Assembly: GCA_031255735.1 (NCBI GenBank)
Contig: JAIRRY010000026.1
Coordinates: 13,524 to 77,523, forward strand
Reading direction: 5' to 3'
DNA: 64,000 bases
Origin: Candidatus Nomurabacteria bacterium
GTDB lineage: Bacteria; Patescibacteriota; Saccharimonadia; Saccharimonadales; Saccharimonadaceae
A program made the translations under genes and the position numbers. Within the stretch, counting starts at the first letter, position 1; the number at the start of each line of letters is the position of its first letter. Positions 5,633-39,790 of this stretch are shown here, piece after piece. The notes beneath the pieces were generated by a model that saw only the letters and a program-made list of their open reading frames with translations, ran no database searches and was not told the origin of the DNA.

Positions 5633-5829
5633 CTTTCCTTCCCTCCTAAAAAATAAATAATTCTATCCCAGGCGGTTATTCGCCATAGGAATAATCAATA
5701 AAATTAATTAATACATTAATTTAATTCATTGACTATATGCTATGGCGGATTAATATATAAGAAAGTCTGTTTTTAGAGTAGGTTATTAAAGTGCAAGACA
5801 ATTAAGGCTTACTGAGTTTTTTGTGAAAA

Positions 5830-5940
5830 CAAAAAACTCCATCTAGATGGAGCAAACAATTTACACTGTTCACGCCCACCGTGATATCAAACTAATCATC
5901 TATACAGAATCTTAGTCATTGTCATATAACTTAGATTCTA
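5830..5940 (-). ncRNA. candidate small RNA / leader transcript, copy 1 of a duplicated module
   Basis: Minus-strand TTGACA (5969-5974), a 17-nt spacer, then TACTAT (5946-5951). About 100 nt follow. A perfect 16-nt palindrome CTCCATCTAGATGGAG (5837-5852) plus U6 then forms an intrinsic terminator. The core is nearly identical to 39500-39560. Confidence 0.3.
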
Positions 5941-5974
5941 TTATCATAGTAGCACACATTTTGGTAATTGTCAA

Positions 5975-6120
5975 GAGGGTGGTAATATTAGTGTTTTATA
6001 ATGAAAAATAGCAGTATTTCTAGGATATATAATTACATTAGAAAGGTTTTGGTGGGTTCTAAGTGGAGTGAAAAATGGATAAAAAAGGGTAGTATATTTT
6101 TAACGGTCTGAGCTGGTTAC
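5975..6120. repeat. left copy of an imperfect direct repeat of about 145 bp bracketing the island cassette
   Basis: It aligns by eye with 14299-14446, for example TAGTGTTTTAT, AGGATATATAATTACAT, GGTTT-GGTG and CTAAGT-GAGT-AAAAA. The right end is a decayed version of the tRNA-Pro 3'-end-like segment. Confidence 0.7.
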
Positions 6121-14298: not shown

Positions 14299-14446
14299 TA
14301 GGGTGATGGTAACCTTAGTGTTTTATGATGTAGAATAGTAGTCTTTATAGGATATATAATTACATAAAAAGGTTTGGTGACTCTAAGTAGAGTAAAAACG
14401 ACTAAAAATGGCTTTACATTTTGAATGGTCGGGGTGCTTGGTTGAG
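14299..14446. repeat. right copy of the direct repeat of about 145 bp; contains a duplicated tRNA-Pro(UGG) 3' end plus terminator flank
   Basis: It aligns with 5975-6120. Positions 14418-14436 (ATTTTGAATGGTCGGGGTG) are identical to 22082-22100. That segment covers the last 11 nt of tRNA-Pro(UGG), including CCA, and the 8 nt beyond it. Looser similarity extends over 14393-14436 versus 22056-22100. Confidence 0.75.
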
Positions 14447-21341: not shown

Positions 21342-21905
21342 TTATTGATTGGCTTGCTCATAAGGCACAGCAATACTATAAGTCAAATTATTGATGCCGC
21401 TCGACACCGTTTGTCCTGTATATGTGAAAACCAACTTATAGCCTTTACTGCTGGCCGCCGACAATATATCTCCCTGAGCCGGCGCGCTATTATCATCGTA
21501 AGTTAACGTAGTCGTTATATTATTACTGGATAAGTTATTGATAGTTGGAGCAATTACACCCAATTTAGCGTTCAAAGAGCCTGTGTTAGTTGCCGTGAAG
21601 GTGCAGCTTACAGTATCGCCCCCGGTCTTAAATGACGGCGATATAGTAATCGTATCATTTGCTGAGCTAGATTGACTTACCACTGGTGTTGAGACCGTTG
21701 CCTCACCAGTAGCCGTGCAGGCTGGTGCCGGACTAGTAGTTTCCCAGTGCACCGACCAAGAGGCCGACTGAATACTTGCCGTACCATTAACCAGTAGATT
21801 CGCGCCTAATGCTGCGAACGCTACGCCTAAGCTCAAAACACCGACCACTAAAGAAGCGATCGCGATCATGCGCGTTTTTTTATGATGCTGATTAACTTTA
21901 ACCAT
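21342..21905 (-). CDS. TasA/camelysin-like secreted protein with SipW-type signal peptide
   Basis: 187 aa. The N-terminus is KKTRMIAIASLVVGVLSLGVAFAALGANLLVNGTA. The mature part is Thr/Ser-rich beta-type sequence with FTATNTGSLNAKL. It is the first gene of the SipW operon. Confidence 0.55.
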   Translation of the reverse strand: MVKVNQHHKKTRMIAIASLVVGVLSLGVAFAALGANLLVNGTASIQSASWSVHWETTSPAPACTATGEATVSTPVVSQSSSANDTITISPSFKTGGDTVSCTFTATNTGSLNAKLGVIAPTINNLSSNNITTTLTYDDNSAPAQGDILSAASSKGYKLVFTYTGQTVSSGINNLTYSIAVPYEQANQ

Positions 21906-36000: not shown

Positions 36001-36077
36001 TGGTGGGGCTAGTAAGACTTGAACTTACGGCCTCACGAATGTGAATCGTGCGCTCTAGCCAACTGAGCTATAACCCC
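36001..36077 (-). tRNA. tRNA-Val (anticodon CAC)
   Basis: Reverse complement GGGGUUAUAGCUCAGUUGG...CACGA-UUCACAU-UCGUG...GUUCAAGUC...UAGCCCCACCA. Confidence 0.9.
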
Positions 36078-36109
36078 GCGCTCACATCGCCGCTACCATC
36101 TTACCACAA

Positions 36110-36127
36110 TTACAGATACCGCGTCGA
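36110..36127. repeat. 18-bp direct repeat, left copy (displaced copy of the dinB 3' end)
   Basis: TTACAGATACCGCGTCGA is identical to 37128-37145. Confidence 0.9.
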
Positions 36128-36160
36128 GTTATAAACAGATCCGCTTATGCTTGATAATTA

Positions 36161-36169
36161 CCCCCCCCC
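36161..36169. repeat. C9 homopolymer tract
   Basis: Nine consecutive C residues lie just downstream of a TGATAAT box (36152-36158) and upstream of the ATG at 36235. Confidence 0.9.
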
Positions 36170-36234
36170 GTGAGAAGATTCTAGGGTCAGATATCGGTAT
36201 CGTATTTTTACATCGAAAGGAAGGTGGAATACTT

Positions 36235-37038
36235 ATGTCAAATATCCTAAGCCCTAAAGACCGCATCGTGGTAGCCCTTGACTACAAGGACCCCAACGAT
36301 GCCAAAGCAGTTATTGACCAACTTACAGCTGGAACTTTCTTCAAGATCGGCATGCAACTCCTATTCGACGTCGACCCCGTGACTGGTGTAAGCCAAGGCT
36401 TCGCACTGGCGCACTACGCTAAAGCCCGGGGGTCTAAGTTGTTCATCGACGTTAAATTCGGGAAAGACACGCCGGAAACTATCAGAGGCGCAGCGTACAA
36501 TCTCTGCAAAATTGCAGACTTCATCACTGTACATGCGCGCTCAGGAGTTGACTACCTGAAGAACGTTCAGGAAGGCATTGCGTCGTATGCCGCAGACAAC
36601 CCTGACATGCCAGTTCCCACAGTTCTTGTTGTCGTCATCTTGACGTCGGAGACTGAGGAGAGCCTGCACAGTCAAGGCTACACTGGAACATACGATGAGA
36701 TTTTCGACGGTTTCTTCCGTATTGCCATTGAAGCCGGCCTGAGCAACTTCATCTCGCCAGCTAACCAGATTGCCAAGATTCGAACAAAGCTGGACAAACT
36801 TGGCAAAGACGGCGTGATCATCTCGCCGGGCATGAAATTGACAGGCGGGAAGGCTAATATCGGCCAGGTGAGCACCGGCACATTCAGGGGTGCAATCGCC
36901 GCTGGAGCCGACTATGCCGTAGCTGGTAGTGGCATAAAACCAGAGAGATCTGGGCTACCATCGTTCCAAGACGGCCTAGACGCGGCTGTAGAAGAAGTTA
37001 GGCAAGGCTTAGCAGACCTAGGAGGTGACAAGCGGTGA
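36235..37038 (+). CDS. orotidine-5'-phosphate decarboxylase family protein (divergent PyrF/KGPDC-like)
   Basis: Motifs IVVALDYKD, FKIGMQLLF, FIDVKFGKDTPETI (D-x-K-x-x-D), ITVHA, IISPGMK and AAGADYAVAGSGI. RBS GAAAGGAAGGTGG lies before the ATG at 36235. The track ORF starts at a TTG at 36151. Confidence 0.65.
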   Translation: MSNILSPKDRIVVALDYKDPNDAKAVIDQLTAGTFFKIGMQLLFDVDPVTGVSQGFALAHYAKARGSKLFIDVKFGKDTPETIRGAAYNLCKIADFITVHARSGVDYLKNVQEGIASYAADNPDMPVPTVLVVVILTSETEESLHSQGYTGTYDEIFDGFFRIAIEAGLSNFISPANQIAKIRTKLDKLGKDGVIISPGMKLTGGKANIGQVSTGTFRGAIAAGADYAVAGSGIKPERSGLPSFQDGLDAAVEEVRQGLADLGGDKR

Positions 37039-37097
37039 GTCGACCTCCACCCTAACCATTCTACGGTATAGATACCAGAATGTCCAACGCACCTTGC

Positions 37098-37129
37098 GCG
37101 GGCCCCTTTACGGGGCCCGCTTGCTTTTT
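37098..37129 (+). terminator. intrinsic terminator at the end of the inserted cassette
   Basis: GCGGGCCCC-TTTAC-GGGGCCCGC followed by TTGCTTTTT. Confidence 0.7.
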
Positions 37130-37145
37130 ACAGATACCGCGTCGA
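37128..37145. repeat. 18-bp direct repeat, right copy (encodes the last residues and stop of dinB)
   Basis: TTACAGATACCGCGTCGA. The reverse complement encodes STRYL followed by the stop. Confidence 0.9.
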
Positions 37146-38399
37146 ACCGAAGGGTATTTTGGCCTTCACTCGCACATTAGTTTGCAAAGTTTCAGCCGAG
37201 TGGATGGTGCGTGCGCCAAAACGTAAGTTAATATCGTCAACCGCCGACGTGACTAATTGCTCACGTGCCAATTTATCGCCAAATAGGCTAAGTTGCTCGT
37301 CGGCCGGCTGGCAAATACCATAACAGGTTACGCCAATTTCGCGAATATCACCTGGTGCGTTTGCAAATAGCTGCTTGGCAATATGCCAAATTGTTTGGGT
37401 AGTATAAAACGGTAGCGAAGCCATGTGACAGCGGTGCCAGTAACCGTTACAGTGAGTTTTGGCGTAGACATACACGCCACGTGCCTGCCTGTTCTTCAGC
37501 CGTAATTTCGTACCAACTTCTTCGGCTAAATGGAGTAACCGCTGTAGAACCTGTGTGTAGGTTAGGTGCCTACTTTCCAAAACATATTGCCGCCCAACTG
37601 ATTTAATGTCGCTTTCGTAATCGTCTACTTCCCAGCCACGAAGACGTTTGAACCATTGCGTTCCACAAACACTTCTAAACACTACTTTACGCAGCGCCTC
37701 TTCGCTAGCTTCCAGAAATTGCAAAGGCGTAAAAATACCAACTGCATTTAACTTAGCAGCGTTAGCCGCTGCGATGCCCGTAAGATCGGTGAGCTTTAGC
37801 GACGCATAAACCTCGCGTAAATTGGCAGGTGTAATTTCGTCCATCCCATCGGGCTTATGCAGCCCAGCCGCAATTTTAGCCAAAAAGCGATTGGTGCTGA
37901 TGCCCACGTTGCAACGCATCCAACAACCAATTTCATCTTTCAACCGACGCTTAATTTCATGGCCAACTTCCCGCAAACTTTTTGCAGGTACCGTACCTGC
38001 AAAAGAGGGCGCGTGGCTGAAGTCTATAATACCTTCGTCGATACTTTTCATCGTCACTTTGGCCGAATAATCGTTCATTATGTTTAATAACTTGTTGTAA
38101 ACGTAGCGATATTTACTCGGCTCGGCTTCAATAAAAATCAGTTCGGGGCAAACCACCAAGGCTTCCAACCGCCGCATTCCAACCTTCACGCCGCGCTCCT
38201 TAGCTTCGTAGCTAGCGGTGATAATTGCCGAGTTTTTGCCAGCTCGATTGCTAATAGCTACTGGCCTGCCGCGTAGCATCGGCCGCGCTTGTTGCTCACA
38301 GGTGGCGAAGCAGCTATTTAAATCTATATGCATGATAAGCGGAGTTGACGCGTTAAATTCGCCTGGCGAACTTTTCGCAGGCTTACTCATAGCGGTCAC
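37128..38399 (-). CDS. dinB: Y-family DNA polymerase (DinB/Pol IV-like)
   Basis: IMHIDLNSCFATCEQ (first catalytic Asp), KSIDEGIIDFS (DE pair) and an HhH-like LTGIAAANAAKLNAVGI. Length 423 aa. Confidence 0.85.
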   Translation of the reverse strand: MTAMSKPAKSSPGEFNASTPLIMHIDLNSCFATCEQQARPMLRGRPVAISNRAGKNSAIITASYEAKERGVKVGMRRLEALVVCPELIFIEAEPSKYRYVYNKLLNIMNDYSAKVTMKSIDEGIIDFSHAPSFAGTVPAKSLREVGHEIKRRLKDEIGCWMRCNVGISTNRFLAKIAAGLHKPDGMDEITPANLREVYASLKLTDLTGIAAANAAKLNAVGIFTPLQFLEASEEALRKVVFRSVCGTQWFKRLRGWEVDDYESDIKSVGRQYVLESRHLTYTQVLQRLLHLAEEVGTKLRLKNRQARGVYVYAKTHCNGYWHRCHMASLPFYTTQTIWHIAKQLFANAPGDIREIGVTCYGICQPADEQLSLFGDKLAREQLVTSAVDDINLRFGARTIHSAETLQTNVRVKAKIPFGSTRYL

Positions 38400-38649
38400 C
38401 CTCGGCCGTTAAGCGCCACACCAACGTTTCGCTATCAAATTCCAGGCGATAATCGGCCGTGCCGTCTGTTACGTCAAAAATATGTCGTGTTTTCAAACCA
38501 TCGTTTTTAGGATGCACTAAACCGACCTCGGTTATAGTCACTTCTCGCCCACTTTTCCGCTTGAATTTAAGTGGCCTGCACGAATGTGCGCCGATTTCAA
38601 AAATCGCCAACACCACCACGCGCTCATCTAGTCTTTCATATTCCATCAA
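38383..38649 (-). CDS. hypothetical 88-aa protein overlapping the dinB start
   Basis: The ORF overlaps dinB by 17 nt. No motif is recognised. Confidence 0.45.
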   Translation of the reverse strand: MMEYERLDERVVVLAIFEIGAHSCRPLKFKRKSGREVTITEVGLVHPKNDGLKTRHIFDVTDGTADYRLEFDSETLVWRLTAEGDRYE

Positions 38650-39298: not shown

Positions 39299-39499
39299 TT
39301 TTTTCTCCTTCTAATGCCGACTTGGGGGATTTTCCTCACGCCGGCTTTTGAATACTGTCCTTATGGACAGCGTTGAACATACCGACGATGTGCTCAACGC
39401 TGCCCATAATTGACATTGTACAGAGAAAAAACGATACTAATCTCTTGCTTGCTTATTAATGTGCAAAGACAACTAAGCTTGTATGAGTTTTTTCTTAAG

Positions 39500-39620
39500 A
39501 AAAAACTCCATCTAGATGGAGTAAACAATTTATACTGTTCACGCCCACCGTGATTTCAAACTTTTATACTAATTGCCTTAGGTTCTAGAATCTGTGTTAC
39601 TATAGTGCAACTTTGATTCT
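39500..39620 (-). ncRNA. candidate small RNA / leader transcript, copy 2 of the duplicated module
   Basis: Minus-strand TTGACA (39650-39655), a 17-nt spacer, then TACAAT (39627-39632). About 110 nt follow, then CTCCATCTAGATGGAG (39506-39521) plus U6. The 3' 60 nt or so differ from copy 1 at only three positions. Confidence 0.3.
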
Positions 39621-39790
39621 AAGCCTATTGTATCAAACTTTATTGTTTTTGTCAATAGTTTTTTCATATTATTTACAATTTAGGTACTTTGGGTTGTTGC
39701 TGTAACAGGGGTGATCGTATCTATATATTCCCTTTGACACTCTTATACATCTTATGCTATAACTAAAGGGGGTAGACATAAAATACAAAA

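Follow-up and report, generated by a model that had tools for sequence, protein, structure and literature searches.

The dinB locus and its direct repeat

The 64,000-nucleotide stretch of DNA analysed here, referred to throughout as the window, belongs to a Candidatus Nomurabacteria bacterium whose genome (G000) is a metagenome bin, a 652-kb assembly of 29 contigs that is 86.6% complete. Within the window dinB, which encodes a Y-family DNA polymerase, and a gene for tRNA-Val are separated by a 1,000-bp segment that amounts to one complete gene unit, with weak promoter-like boxes, a ribosome binding site (RBS), an open reading frame (ORF) of the orotidine 5'-monophosphate decarboxylase family (OMPdecase) and a hairpin terminator, and this segment is bounded on both sides by a copy of the 18-mer TTACAGATACCGCGTCGA (Table 1). 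The two copies lie 1018 bp apart and differ by 0 mismatches. The right copy, in minus-strand orientation, is TCG ACG CGG TAT CTG TAA, which encodes S-T-R-Y-L-stop of dinB, and a gap of 32 nt separates the left copy from the 5' end of tRNA-Val(CAC). The original prediction for this locus, a perfect 18-bp repeat whose right copy is the end of dinB, enclosing a single OMPdecase-family gene with its own RBS and a GC-rich terminator, was accurate in these respects, with the Pfam search and the terminator scan in agreement; the left copy was also correctly placed near tRNA-Val, but at 33 nt instead of the 32 nt measured.

Table 1. Features of the dinB to tRNA-Val interval (positions in the window)
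Feature	Position	Strand	Basis and remarks
tRNA-Val(CAC), downstream neighbour of the slot	36001..36077	-	ARAGORN; same place in the congener G001
tRNA-Val leader and -10-like box TAAGAT (36098-36103)	36078..36109	-	Sequence reading; aligns with the G001 tRNA-Val upstream region; putative promoter role
Left 18-bp repeat copy	36110..36127	+	Exact match; first six bases of the minus strand, TCGACG (36122-36127), form a -35-like box
Insert 5' non-coding part	36128..36234	+	TTATAA-18-GATAAT weak promoter-like boxes (GATAAT 36153-36158); C9 tract 36161-36169; RBS 36218-36227
OMP-decarboxylase-family gene, 267 aa	36235..37038, stop included	+	Pfam PF00215
Insert 3' non-coding part, 89 nt, two hairpins	37039..37127	+	Terminator scan; fold -37 kcal/mol, z = -3.8
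Right 18-bp repeat copy, last five codons (STRYL) and stop of dinB	37128..37145	+; dinB on minus	Exact match
dinB, Y-family DNA polymerase IV-like, 423 aa, intact	37128..38399	-	Pfam IMS and IMS_C

There are exactly two copies of the 18-mer in the whole assembly and no third site matching it at 14 or more of the 18 positions was found on either strand. The identity between the copies breaks off sharply at both edges, and among direct repeats of G000 with a spacing greater than 500 bp this is the longest. It was calculated that about 0.06 - 0.2 18-mer repeats within 6 kb would be expected across the entire genome, a figure that becomes far lower at these particular positions, and shuffled controls for the dinB end reached a maximum of 14/18 matches. 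A search of viral contigs yielded 0 matches and a search of 185,579 species genomes yielded 8 unrelated ones, approximately the chance expectation. It might be argued that the repeat has no historical meaning, since exact 14-17-mers recur in G000 through shared promoter and RBS motifs, and those that were examined proved to be either such motifs or palindromes, but this is extremely improbable given the low expectation and an 18/18 identity that coincides exactly with the two edges of a gene unit peculiar to the lineage. Because the match is exact and is placed at the gene-unit boundaries, and one of the copies finishes with a stop codon, chance is not a credible explanation, as the original prediction had also concluded.

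The inserted gene unit and its neighbours

The RBS of the inserted gene is AGGAAGGTGG. A consensus scan detected no promoter at threshold in the 5' non-coding part of the insert. The C9 tract in that region reads on the minus strand as G9-TAATTA, a match to a G-tract promoter motif that recurs in the genus. Downstream of the gene, the second hairpin (37098-37120) has a 9-bp all-GC stem, GCGGGCCCC/GGGGCCCGC, followed by the T-run TTGCTTTTT, and is a predicted intrinsic terminator facing dinB. The first hairpin of the tail contains the sequence TATAGATACC (37067-37076), which matches the core of the 18-mer at 9/10 positions and lies 62 nt before the right copy; this may be chance.

The G-tracts merit a separate comment. 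Runs of G8-G9 are found directly 5' of -10-like boxes both in G000 (TTGACT-7-G9-TACAAT) and in G001 (TTGACA-9-G8-TATACT), the only other species of the genus, with 8 counted in the former and ~30 in the latter, several of them at contig ends. Besides the tract at 36161-36169 of the window, sites include C3:24159, C10:13015, C14:15620 and C24:133 of G000 and the loci L075, L076 and L078 of G001. They have the appearance of homopolymer promoter spacers and so are candidates for phase-variable expression.

On the other side of the insert, dinB has the NCBIfam Pol IV models as its best matches, all scoring under the curated cut-offs, and its product shares 80% amino-acid identity with the G001 orthologue, in which the C-terminal GSTRYL is conserved as well. 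An 88-aa ORF without a Pfam match (orf88; 38383-38649, minus strand) overlaps the start of dinB, and is kept together with dinB in another genus, where it lies directly upstream of dinB in loci L109 and L110 with 58-60% identity.

An important consideration is the relationship between the repeat and the tRNA-Val promoter. Read towards tRNA-Val, the left copy opens with TCGACG, a 4/6 match to TTGACA, which is 18 nt upstream of TAAGAT, and TAAGAT in turn is 20 nt before the mature 5' end of tRNA-Val. When the insert and one repeat copy are removed in silico the dinB stop comes to lie 6 nt before TAAGAT. This suggests that the promoter of tRNA-Val ancestrally overlapped the end of dinB, although the consensus promoter scan gave no score to these boxes. 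A similarly compact layout is found in one of the related loci (L035), in which a TGTTATAAT box occurs ~20 nt after the dinB stop. An alignment of the left copy (GCGGTATCTGT) with the region upstream of tRNA-Val in G001 (GCCGCATCTGT) is suggestive of homology, with alternative alignments existing. With such an overlap an insertion at this point could spare dinB and the promoter alike only if each flank carried the 18 bp, and this would explain why the product was retained, not how it originated.

Age and reality of the insertion

The divergence between the two species of the genus provides a yardstick for the age of the repeat. Synonymous divergence (dS) between G000 and G001 is 1.6 for yebC, the gene beyond tRNA-Val, and is saturated for dinB, yet the two 18-mers are identical, including five or six synonymous positions. 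Since synonymous sites are saturated between the genomes and the copies nonetheless match at 18/18 positions, the repeat, judged on these sites, must be much younger than the separation of G000 and G001, or else it is actively homogenised. The gene unit sits exactly at the dinB stop with dinB at full length, so that the insertion scar keeps the dinB reading frame, as had been proposed. The repeat thus marks a real and young rearrangement by which a self-contained gene unit has been placed exactly at the stop codon of dinB.

As G000 is a 29-contig metagenome bin and the insert is atypical in composition, it has to be asked whether a 1-kb segment of another organism or strain was joined in silico during assembly or binning. 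An independent Logan contig (SRR14710884) is 100% identical to the window up to position 36060 and breaks inside tRNA-Val, and so does not span the junction. Against an artefact, contig ends of G000 overlap by exactly 119 nt, which indicates a large-k assembly in which an 18-bp repeat would not be a source of mis-joins; an overlap of 18 bp is in any case smaller than the smallest k of common metagenome assemblers. Both junctions would in addition need the same 18-mer, and the layout is coherent, with the T-run of the terminator running into the repeat and with dinB and the promoter preserved. An artefact is therefore considered very unlikely.

The dinB-yebC interval in related genomes

In G001 the order of genes is tRNA-Met, dinB, tRNA-Val, yebC, as it is in G000, and the similarity of the two genomes breaks off with the dinB stop and is picked up again near the left repeat copy. 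Between dinB and tRNA-Val G001 carries a different gene, encoding a 153-aa LysM protein, so that its dinB-yebC interval consists of the LysM gene and tRNA-Val. The interval is 63 bp without a gene in L035 and holds one small ORF in the genome G010, whilst in L034, the dinB of which is 73% identical, it contains genes for a membrane protein, an OMPdecase-family protein and a phosphoribosyltransferase (PRTase), convergent with dinB. Since the interval is different in every readable relative, it is a hot spot with lineage-specific cargo. It had been suggested that related genomes should be searched for an empty site with a single 18-mer; none was found among the accessible relatives, and with the G001 slot holding the LysM gene the comparison is one of a variable hot spot and not of a filled and an empty site. 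The 5' region of the insert was considered as a possible remnant of the G001 LysM gene and rejected, as only the 19-nt G9 motif matches and this is a recurrent promoter feature. A scan of metagenomes with dinB for closer strains gave a best match of 73% identity, and exact look-ups of dinB, the OMPdecase gene and orf88 returned no records.

The cargo gene

The inserted gene stands apart from the rest of the genome in its composition. When compared with the 382 ORFs of G000 its GC content is 52.4%, against a mean of 46.8%, GC at third codon positions (GC3) is 57.7% (96th percentile), C at third positions (C3) is 37.5% (97.6th percentile) and codon fit is at the 5th percentile; GC, GC3 and C3 all fall at the 96th-98th percentile. 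The visual impression that the gene uses more C-ending codons than its neighbours is thus borne out.

Its product scores 86 bits against Pfam PF00215 (OMPdecase), for which the cut-off is 27, but falls under the cut-offs of the pyrF equivalog models of NCBIfam, with 100 versus 193 bits for PRK00230 and 67 versus 92 bits for TIGR01740, and it is the single OMPdecase match in the whole of G000. Searches of 5.8 billion clustered and 1.84 billion representative proteins revealed no homologue with more than 38% identity, and in the latter set the only protein below 1e-30 was the cargo protein itself. The plan to find a donor lineage by protein searching and phylogeny has consequently not led to a name, because the best identity is 38%. 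In phylogenetic trees the protein belongs to a small clade with Shimodaira-Hasegawa-like approximate likelihood ratio (SH-aLRT) support of 92-96, together with a JGI protein and a protein labelled Candidatus Nomurabacteria that is identical to the one encoded in the same-family genome G097; the genes of two genomes of the same order join this clade in a first tree and are placed elsewhere in a second. On this basis the cargo gene appears to group loosely with OMPdecases of the candidate phyla radiation (CPR) and of the same family. The label and the placement of one of these sequences disagree, in that P0037 (locus L091, G097:C32) bears the NCBI label Candidatus Nomurabacteria and is identical to the OMPdecase of a genome placed in the window's family.

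The distribution of such genes in the family is patchy. The cargo gene was not found in G001 or in the first 24 same-family genomes searched, and in a later survey at the Pfam cut-off 46 of 401 genomes of the family had an OMPdecase, in at least 6 very divergent lineages. In relatives the gene is nearly always beside a PRTase (pyrE-like) gene, whereas in G000 no pyrE, pyrD (dihydroorotate dehydrogenase) or pyrB (aspartate carbamoyltransferase) gene and no homologue of the relatives' PRTases was found. The earlier remark that a lone pyrF-like gene would be odd in such a genome therefore stands for the assembly at its present completeness. Pairs of OMPdecase and PRTase genes were located at L034:5336-6807, L109:6036-7388 and L110:6101-7461, and occur beside dinB in at least three lineages, being either convergent with dinB or divergent from an orf88-dinB operon.

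An AlphaFold model of the cargo protein has a predicted local distance difference test score (pLDDT) of 81.7 and its best fold match is the Bacillus subtilis OMP decarboxylase (OMPDC) 1DBT, with template modelling (TM) scores of 0.78/0.88. All the PDB sequence matches listed are OMPDCs, and neither 3-keto-L-gulonate 6-phosphate decarboxylase (KGPDC) nor hexulose-6-phosphate synthase (HPS) was found among the 60 PDB sequence matches listed or among the top 50 fold matches, so that the suggestion of a KGPDC/HPS-like activity receives no support. The Lys of the FKIG motif, Asp72, Lys74 and the phosphate-loop Gln211 are all present, but the DxKxxD motif has a one-residue insertion (DVKFGKD) that shifts the second Asp, and Ser (VAGS) stands in place of the phosphate-gripping Arg, a change shared with some CPR relatives. 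The cargo is thus a predicted, divergent member of the OMPDC-fold family with an altered active-site motif.

The occurrence of OMPdecase genes beside dinB elsewhere raises the question of whether the cargo gene is a newcomer at all. An OMPdecase+PRTase pair lies beside dinB not only in L034, convergent and in the same slot, but also in genus g58, where it is divergent, and an approximately unbiased (AU) test does not reject a sister relationship of the G000 and L034 OMPdecases (p = 0.68). Together the gene in the L034 slot and the AU result mean that the cargo gene could be an old resident, a remnant of a pyrF/pyrE-like pair by dinB, in which case the repeat would derive from a later local rearrangement, such as one in which the PRTase gene was lost or tRNA-Val moved together with its promoter. 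The position of the gene among CPR and same-family homologues fits this view. The original prediction had named branching with vertical homologues of the same lineage as an outcome that would tell against an insertion, and that is in part what is seen, the gene grouping with CPR and same-family homologues and being compatible with L034 in the AU test. Set against this, the OMPdecases of G000 and L034 are only 22% identical, compared with 73-75% for the flanking dinB and yebC, the gene is lacking from G001 and its composition is atypical. No simple rearrangement, moreover, would copy exactly 18 bp past a resident gene, and no other duplicated sequence marks such an event. Old residence is accordingly judged unlikely.

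Possible mechanisms of insertion

A number of classes of mobile element can be considered for the insert and rejected. The ends of the insert (GTTATAAAC.../...GCTTGCTTT) have no inverted repeat, there is no transposase domain and there are no other copies, so it is not a transposon, insertion sequence or miniature inverted-repeat transposable element; indeed the rest of G000 contained no further copy of the insert, whole or partial, and the search for further cassettes ending in the same terminator-like hairpin, which had been proposed as a check, gave none in that genome, nor was a repeat family found. An integron cassette is not indicated by the boundaries, TCGA|GTTATAA and GCTTT|TTACAG, nor by the 3' hairpins, in which there are no paired attC cores (RYYYAAC ... 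GTTRRRY). An integron platform is likewise rejected, the neighbours being tRNA-Val, yebC and dinB, with no array and with both tyrosine recombinases of G000 on other contigs. An element using Xer and dif (an integrative mobile element exploiting Xer, IMEX) would be expected at 28-bp dif-like sites at the terminus; the repeat is only 18 bp and there is no GC-skew switch on the 85-kb contig that holds the window, the skew being negative throughout, including at the dinB locus. Ku-dependent end joining was rejected, no Ku gene having been found in G000.

Within the insert the OMPdecase ORF is the only one with a family match, and there is no gene for recombination, conjugation or mobilisation. 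G000 has two tyrosine recombinases elsewhere, one of them in an int+xis pair at a contig end, and no link of either to the dinB site was found. This pair (C9:43238-44660) consists of a phage-type tyrosine integrase of 375 aa with atypical codons and a small excisionase-like helix-turn-helix (HTH) gene, and probably represents one margin of an integrated element, with its att site unassembled.

By analogy with integrase-less islets, integration in trans, with an 18-bp att-like site either duplicated or exploited in the process, seems on balance the probable explanation. The last 18 bp of dinB would originally have had a second role, supplying the tRNA-Val promoter with its -35 box and upstream spacer, and the 1,000-bp self-contained gene unit would have been integrated exactly at the dinB end, leaving one 18-bp copy on each side so that dinB kept its last five codons and stop and tRNA-Val kept its promoter. 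As the insert is without a recombinase, the joining would have been done in trans. The preferred route is an att-like one, in which a 1,018-bp circular intermediate bearing the same 18-mer recombines with the chromosomal copy; repair of a staggered break would be a less likely one. Integrase-less islets such as cis-mobilizable elements are believed to act in this manner (PMC7563491), and the recombinase-less H47 island does so independently of RecA (PMC5426353).

Several observations weigh against integration of this kind. Among the accessible relatives there is no empty site with tRNA-Val for the G000 arrangement, a second insertion of the same unit was not found, and an attP-like third copy of the 18-mer was not found in G000 (both strands), the viral contigs or the species genomes. 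No integrase adjoins dinB in the dinB loci fetched from relatives (L008-L059), and repeats of the relatives' own dinB ends do not rise above shuffled controls. The slot of L034 holds an OMPdecase whose monophyly with the cargo gene is not rejected by the AU test, the closest relatives of the cargo protein, at 33-36% identity, include a same-family genome, and a G9-TA motif typical of the host genus lies within the 5' non-coding part of the insert.

A rival reading is a one-off illegitimate event having no site specificity. DNA of a related bacterium, linear or circular and perhaps acquired by uptake, would have been joined in one of two ways, namely homology-facilitated illegitimate recombination with dinB as the anchor, or recombination at short homology that did not need RecA. 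The second join would by chance have fallen 18 bp inside dinB, and the product would have been retained because it alone left dinB and the promoter of tRNA-Val intact. In keeping with such an event are the lack of a recombinase, of inverted ends, of other copies and of any recurrence of the repeat in relatives, and the G9-TA promoter motif of the insert suggests a donor from the same genus-level lineage. Homology-facilitated illegitimate recombination, however, usually deletes recipient DNA and does not duplicate it. The event would also need a near-identical dinB end in the donor, of which there is no example among those sampled, and with no Ku gene found end joining is not indicated. That recombination at short repeats can proceed independently of RecA is documented (PMC5426353). 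Overall a one-off event is possible, if rather doubtful.

A broader version of integration in trans can also be envisaged, in which the locus would be a single-unit case of a gene-capture system general to Saccharibacteria, with cassettes that comprise a gene and a 3' hairpin module and have no recombinase. A trans-acting enzyme would insert such cassettes directly behind the ends of genes, the anchor here being protein-coding and not a tRNA or tmRNA gene, and would copy the last bases of the anchor so that both it and the next promoter survive. Were this true, the recurrent pyrF-type genes beside dinB would reflect targeting of the conserved dinB end. The idea is speculative and is thought unlikely to hold.

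Other repeats in the window

Two further kinds of repeat were noted in the window. A family of ~200-nt repeats has at least 12 copies in G000, many of which break the assembly. The window contains copies at 5783-5983 and 39453-39662, neither of which touches the dinB insert, and others lie at C4:267-460, C5:23476-23700, C6:7087-7286 and C26:554-755 and 21384-21643, and at several contig ends. A direct repeat of ~145 bp, with ~70-75% identity between its copies (5975-6120 and 14299-14446), brackets an 8-kb segment, and the right copy ends ~55 nt from the 3' end of tRNA-Pro(CGG), making this a second repeat-bracketed segment in the window.

Significance and comparison with known systems

Gene gain in the ultra-small, host-dependent CPR bacteria is poorly understood, and mobile elements and recombinases are both scarce in them. 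The present insertion, which is young, cleanly bounded and limited to a single gene, with an 18-bp duplication that is exact, occupies a variable slot and provides a concrete and testable case of such gain, here as one event in one metagenome bin. Were the same junction logic to recur at other loci, this would suggest that the group has an insertion mechanism not yet characterised. The cargo gene is a puzzle in its own right, being a divergent, predicted OMPDC-fold gene with an altered active-site motif and with no pathway partner found in the assembly. Its product resembles B. subtilis PyrF (1DBT) in having the Pfam OMPdecase domain, OMPDCs as best matches, the FKIG Lys (the first of the Lys-Asp-Lys-Asp tetrad), Asp-x-Lys and the phosphate-loop Gln, and differs from it in the DVKFGKD insertion, the Ser in place of the gripper Arg, the sub-cut-off equivalog scores and the failure to find a PRTase or other pyr gene.

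As regards the structure of the locus, integron cassettes are an obvious point of reference, and are defined by the integrase IntI, the attI site and attC sites with a GTTRRRY core. Like such a cassette the present unit consists of a single gene with a 3' hairpin element at the junction and with no recombinase inside, but its left boundary is GTTATAA and not GTTRRRY, there are no paired attC cores, integrase, attI or array, and it brings its own promoter-like region and terminator. A different precedent is the H47 island of Escherichia coli, which is recombinase-less and excises and integrates via RecA-independent recombination between flanking repeats (PMC5426353). The two share the lack of a recombinase encoded by the element, direct-repeat boundaries and, presumably in the present case, a function supplied by the host. 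H47, in contrast, is 13 kb in length with long imperfect repeats containing several blocks of homology, and its mobility has been shown by experiment, whereas the present locus is known from sequence alone.

There is also a parallel with cis-mobilizable elements (CIMEs), decayed integrative elements that have kept attL and attR and lost their recombination genes, and which in streptococci occupy the 3' ends of rpmG, rpsI, fda and tRNA genes and range in size from 1.2 - 13 kb (PMC7563491). In both cases a cargo segment without an integrase lies between direct repeats, and since these take in the 3' end of a conserved gene, that gene remains intact, and in the present insert, which lies just below the CIME size range, the flanks are direct repeats, there are no mobility genes inside and the 3' end of dinB is restored by the repeat. 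The insert differs from CIMEs in that no related integrative and conjugative or mobilizable element (ICE/IME) with the same att site was found in G000 or its relatives, and in being a single-gene unit in a CPR host with no conjugation context and no tandem accretion. The structure is nevertheless that of an integrase-less, repeat-flanked islet at the 3' end of a gene, of a kind already known in other bacteria.

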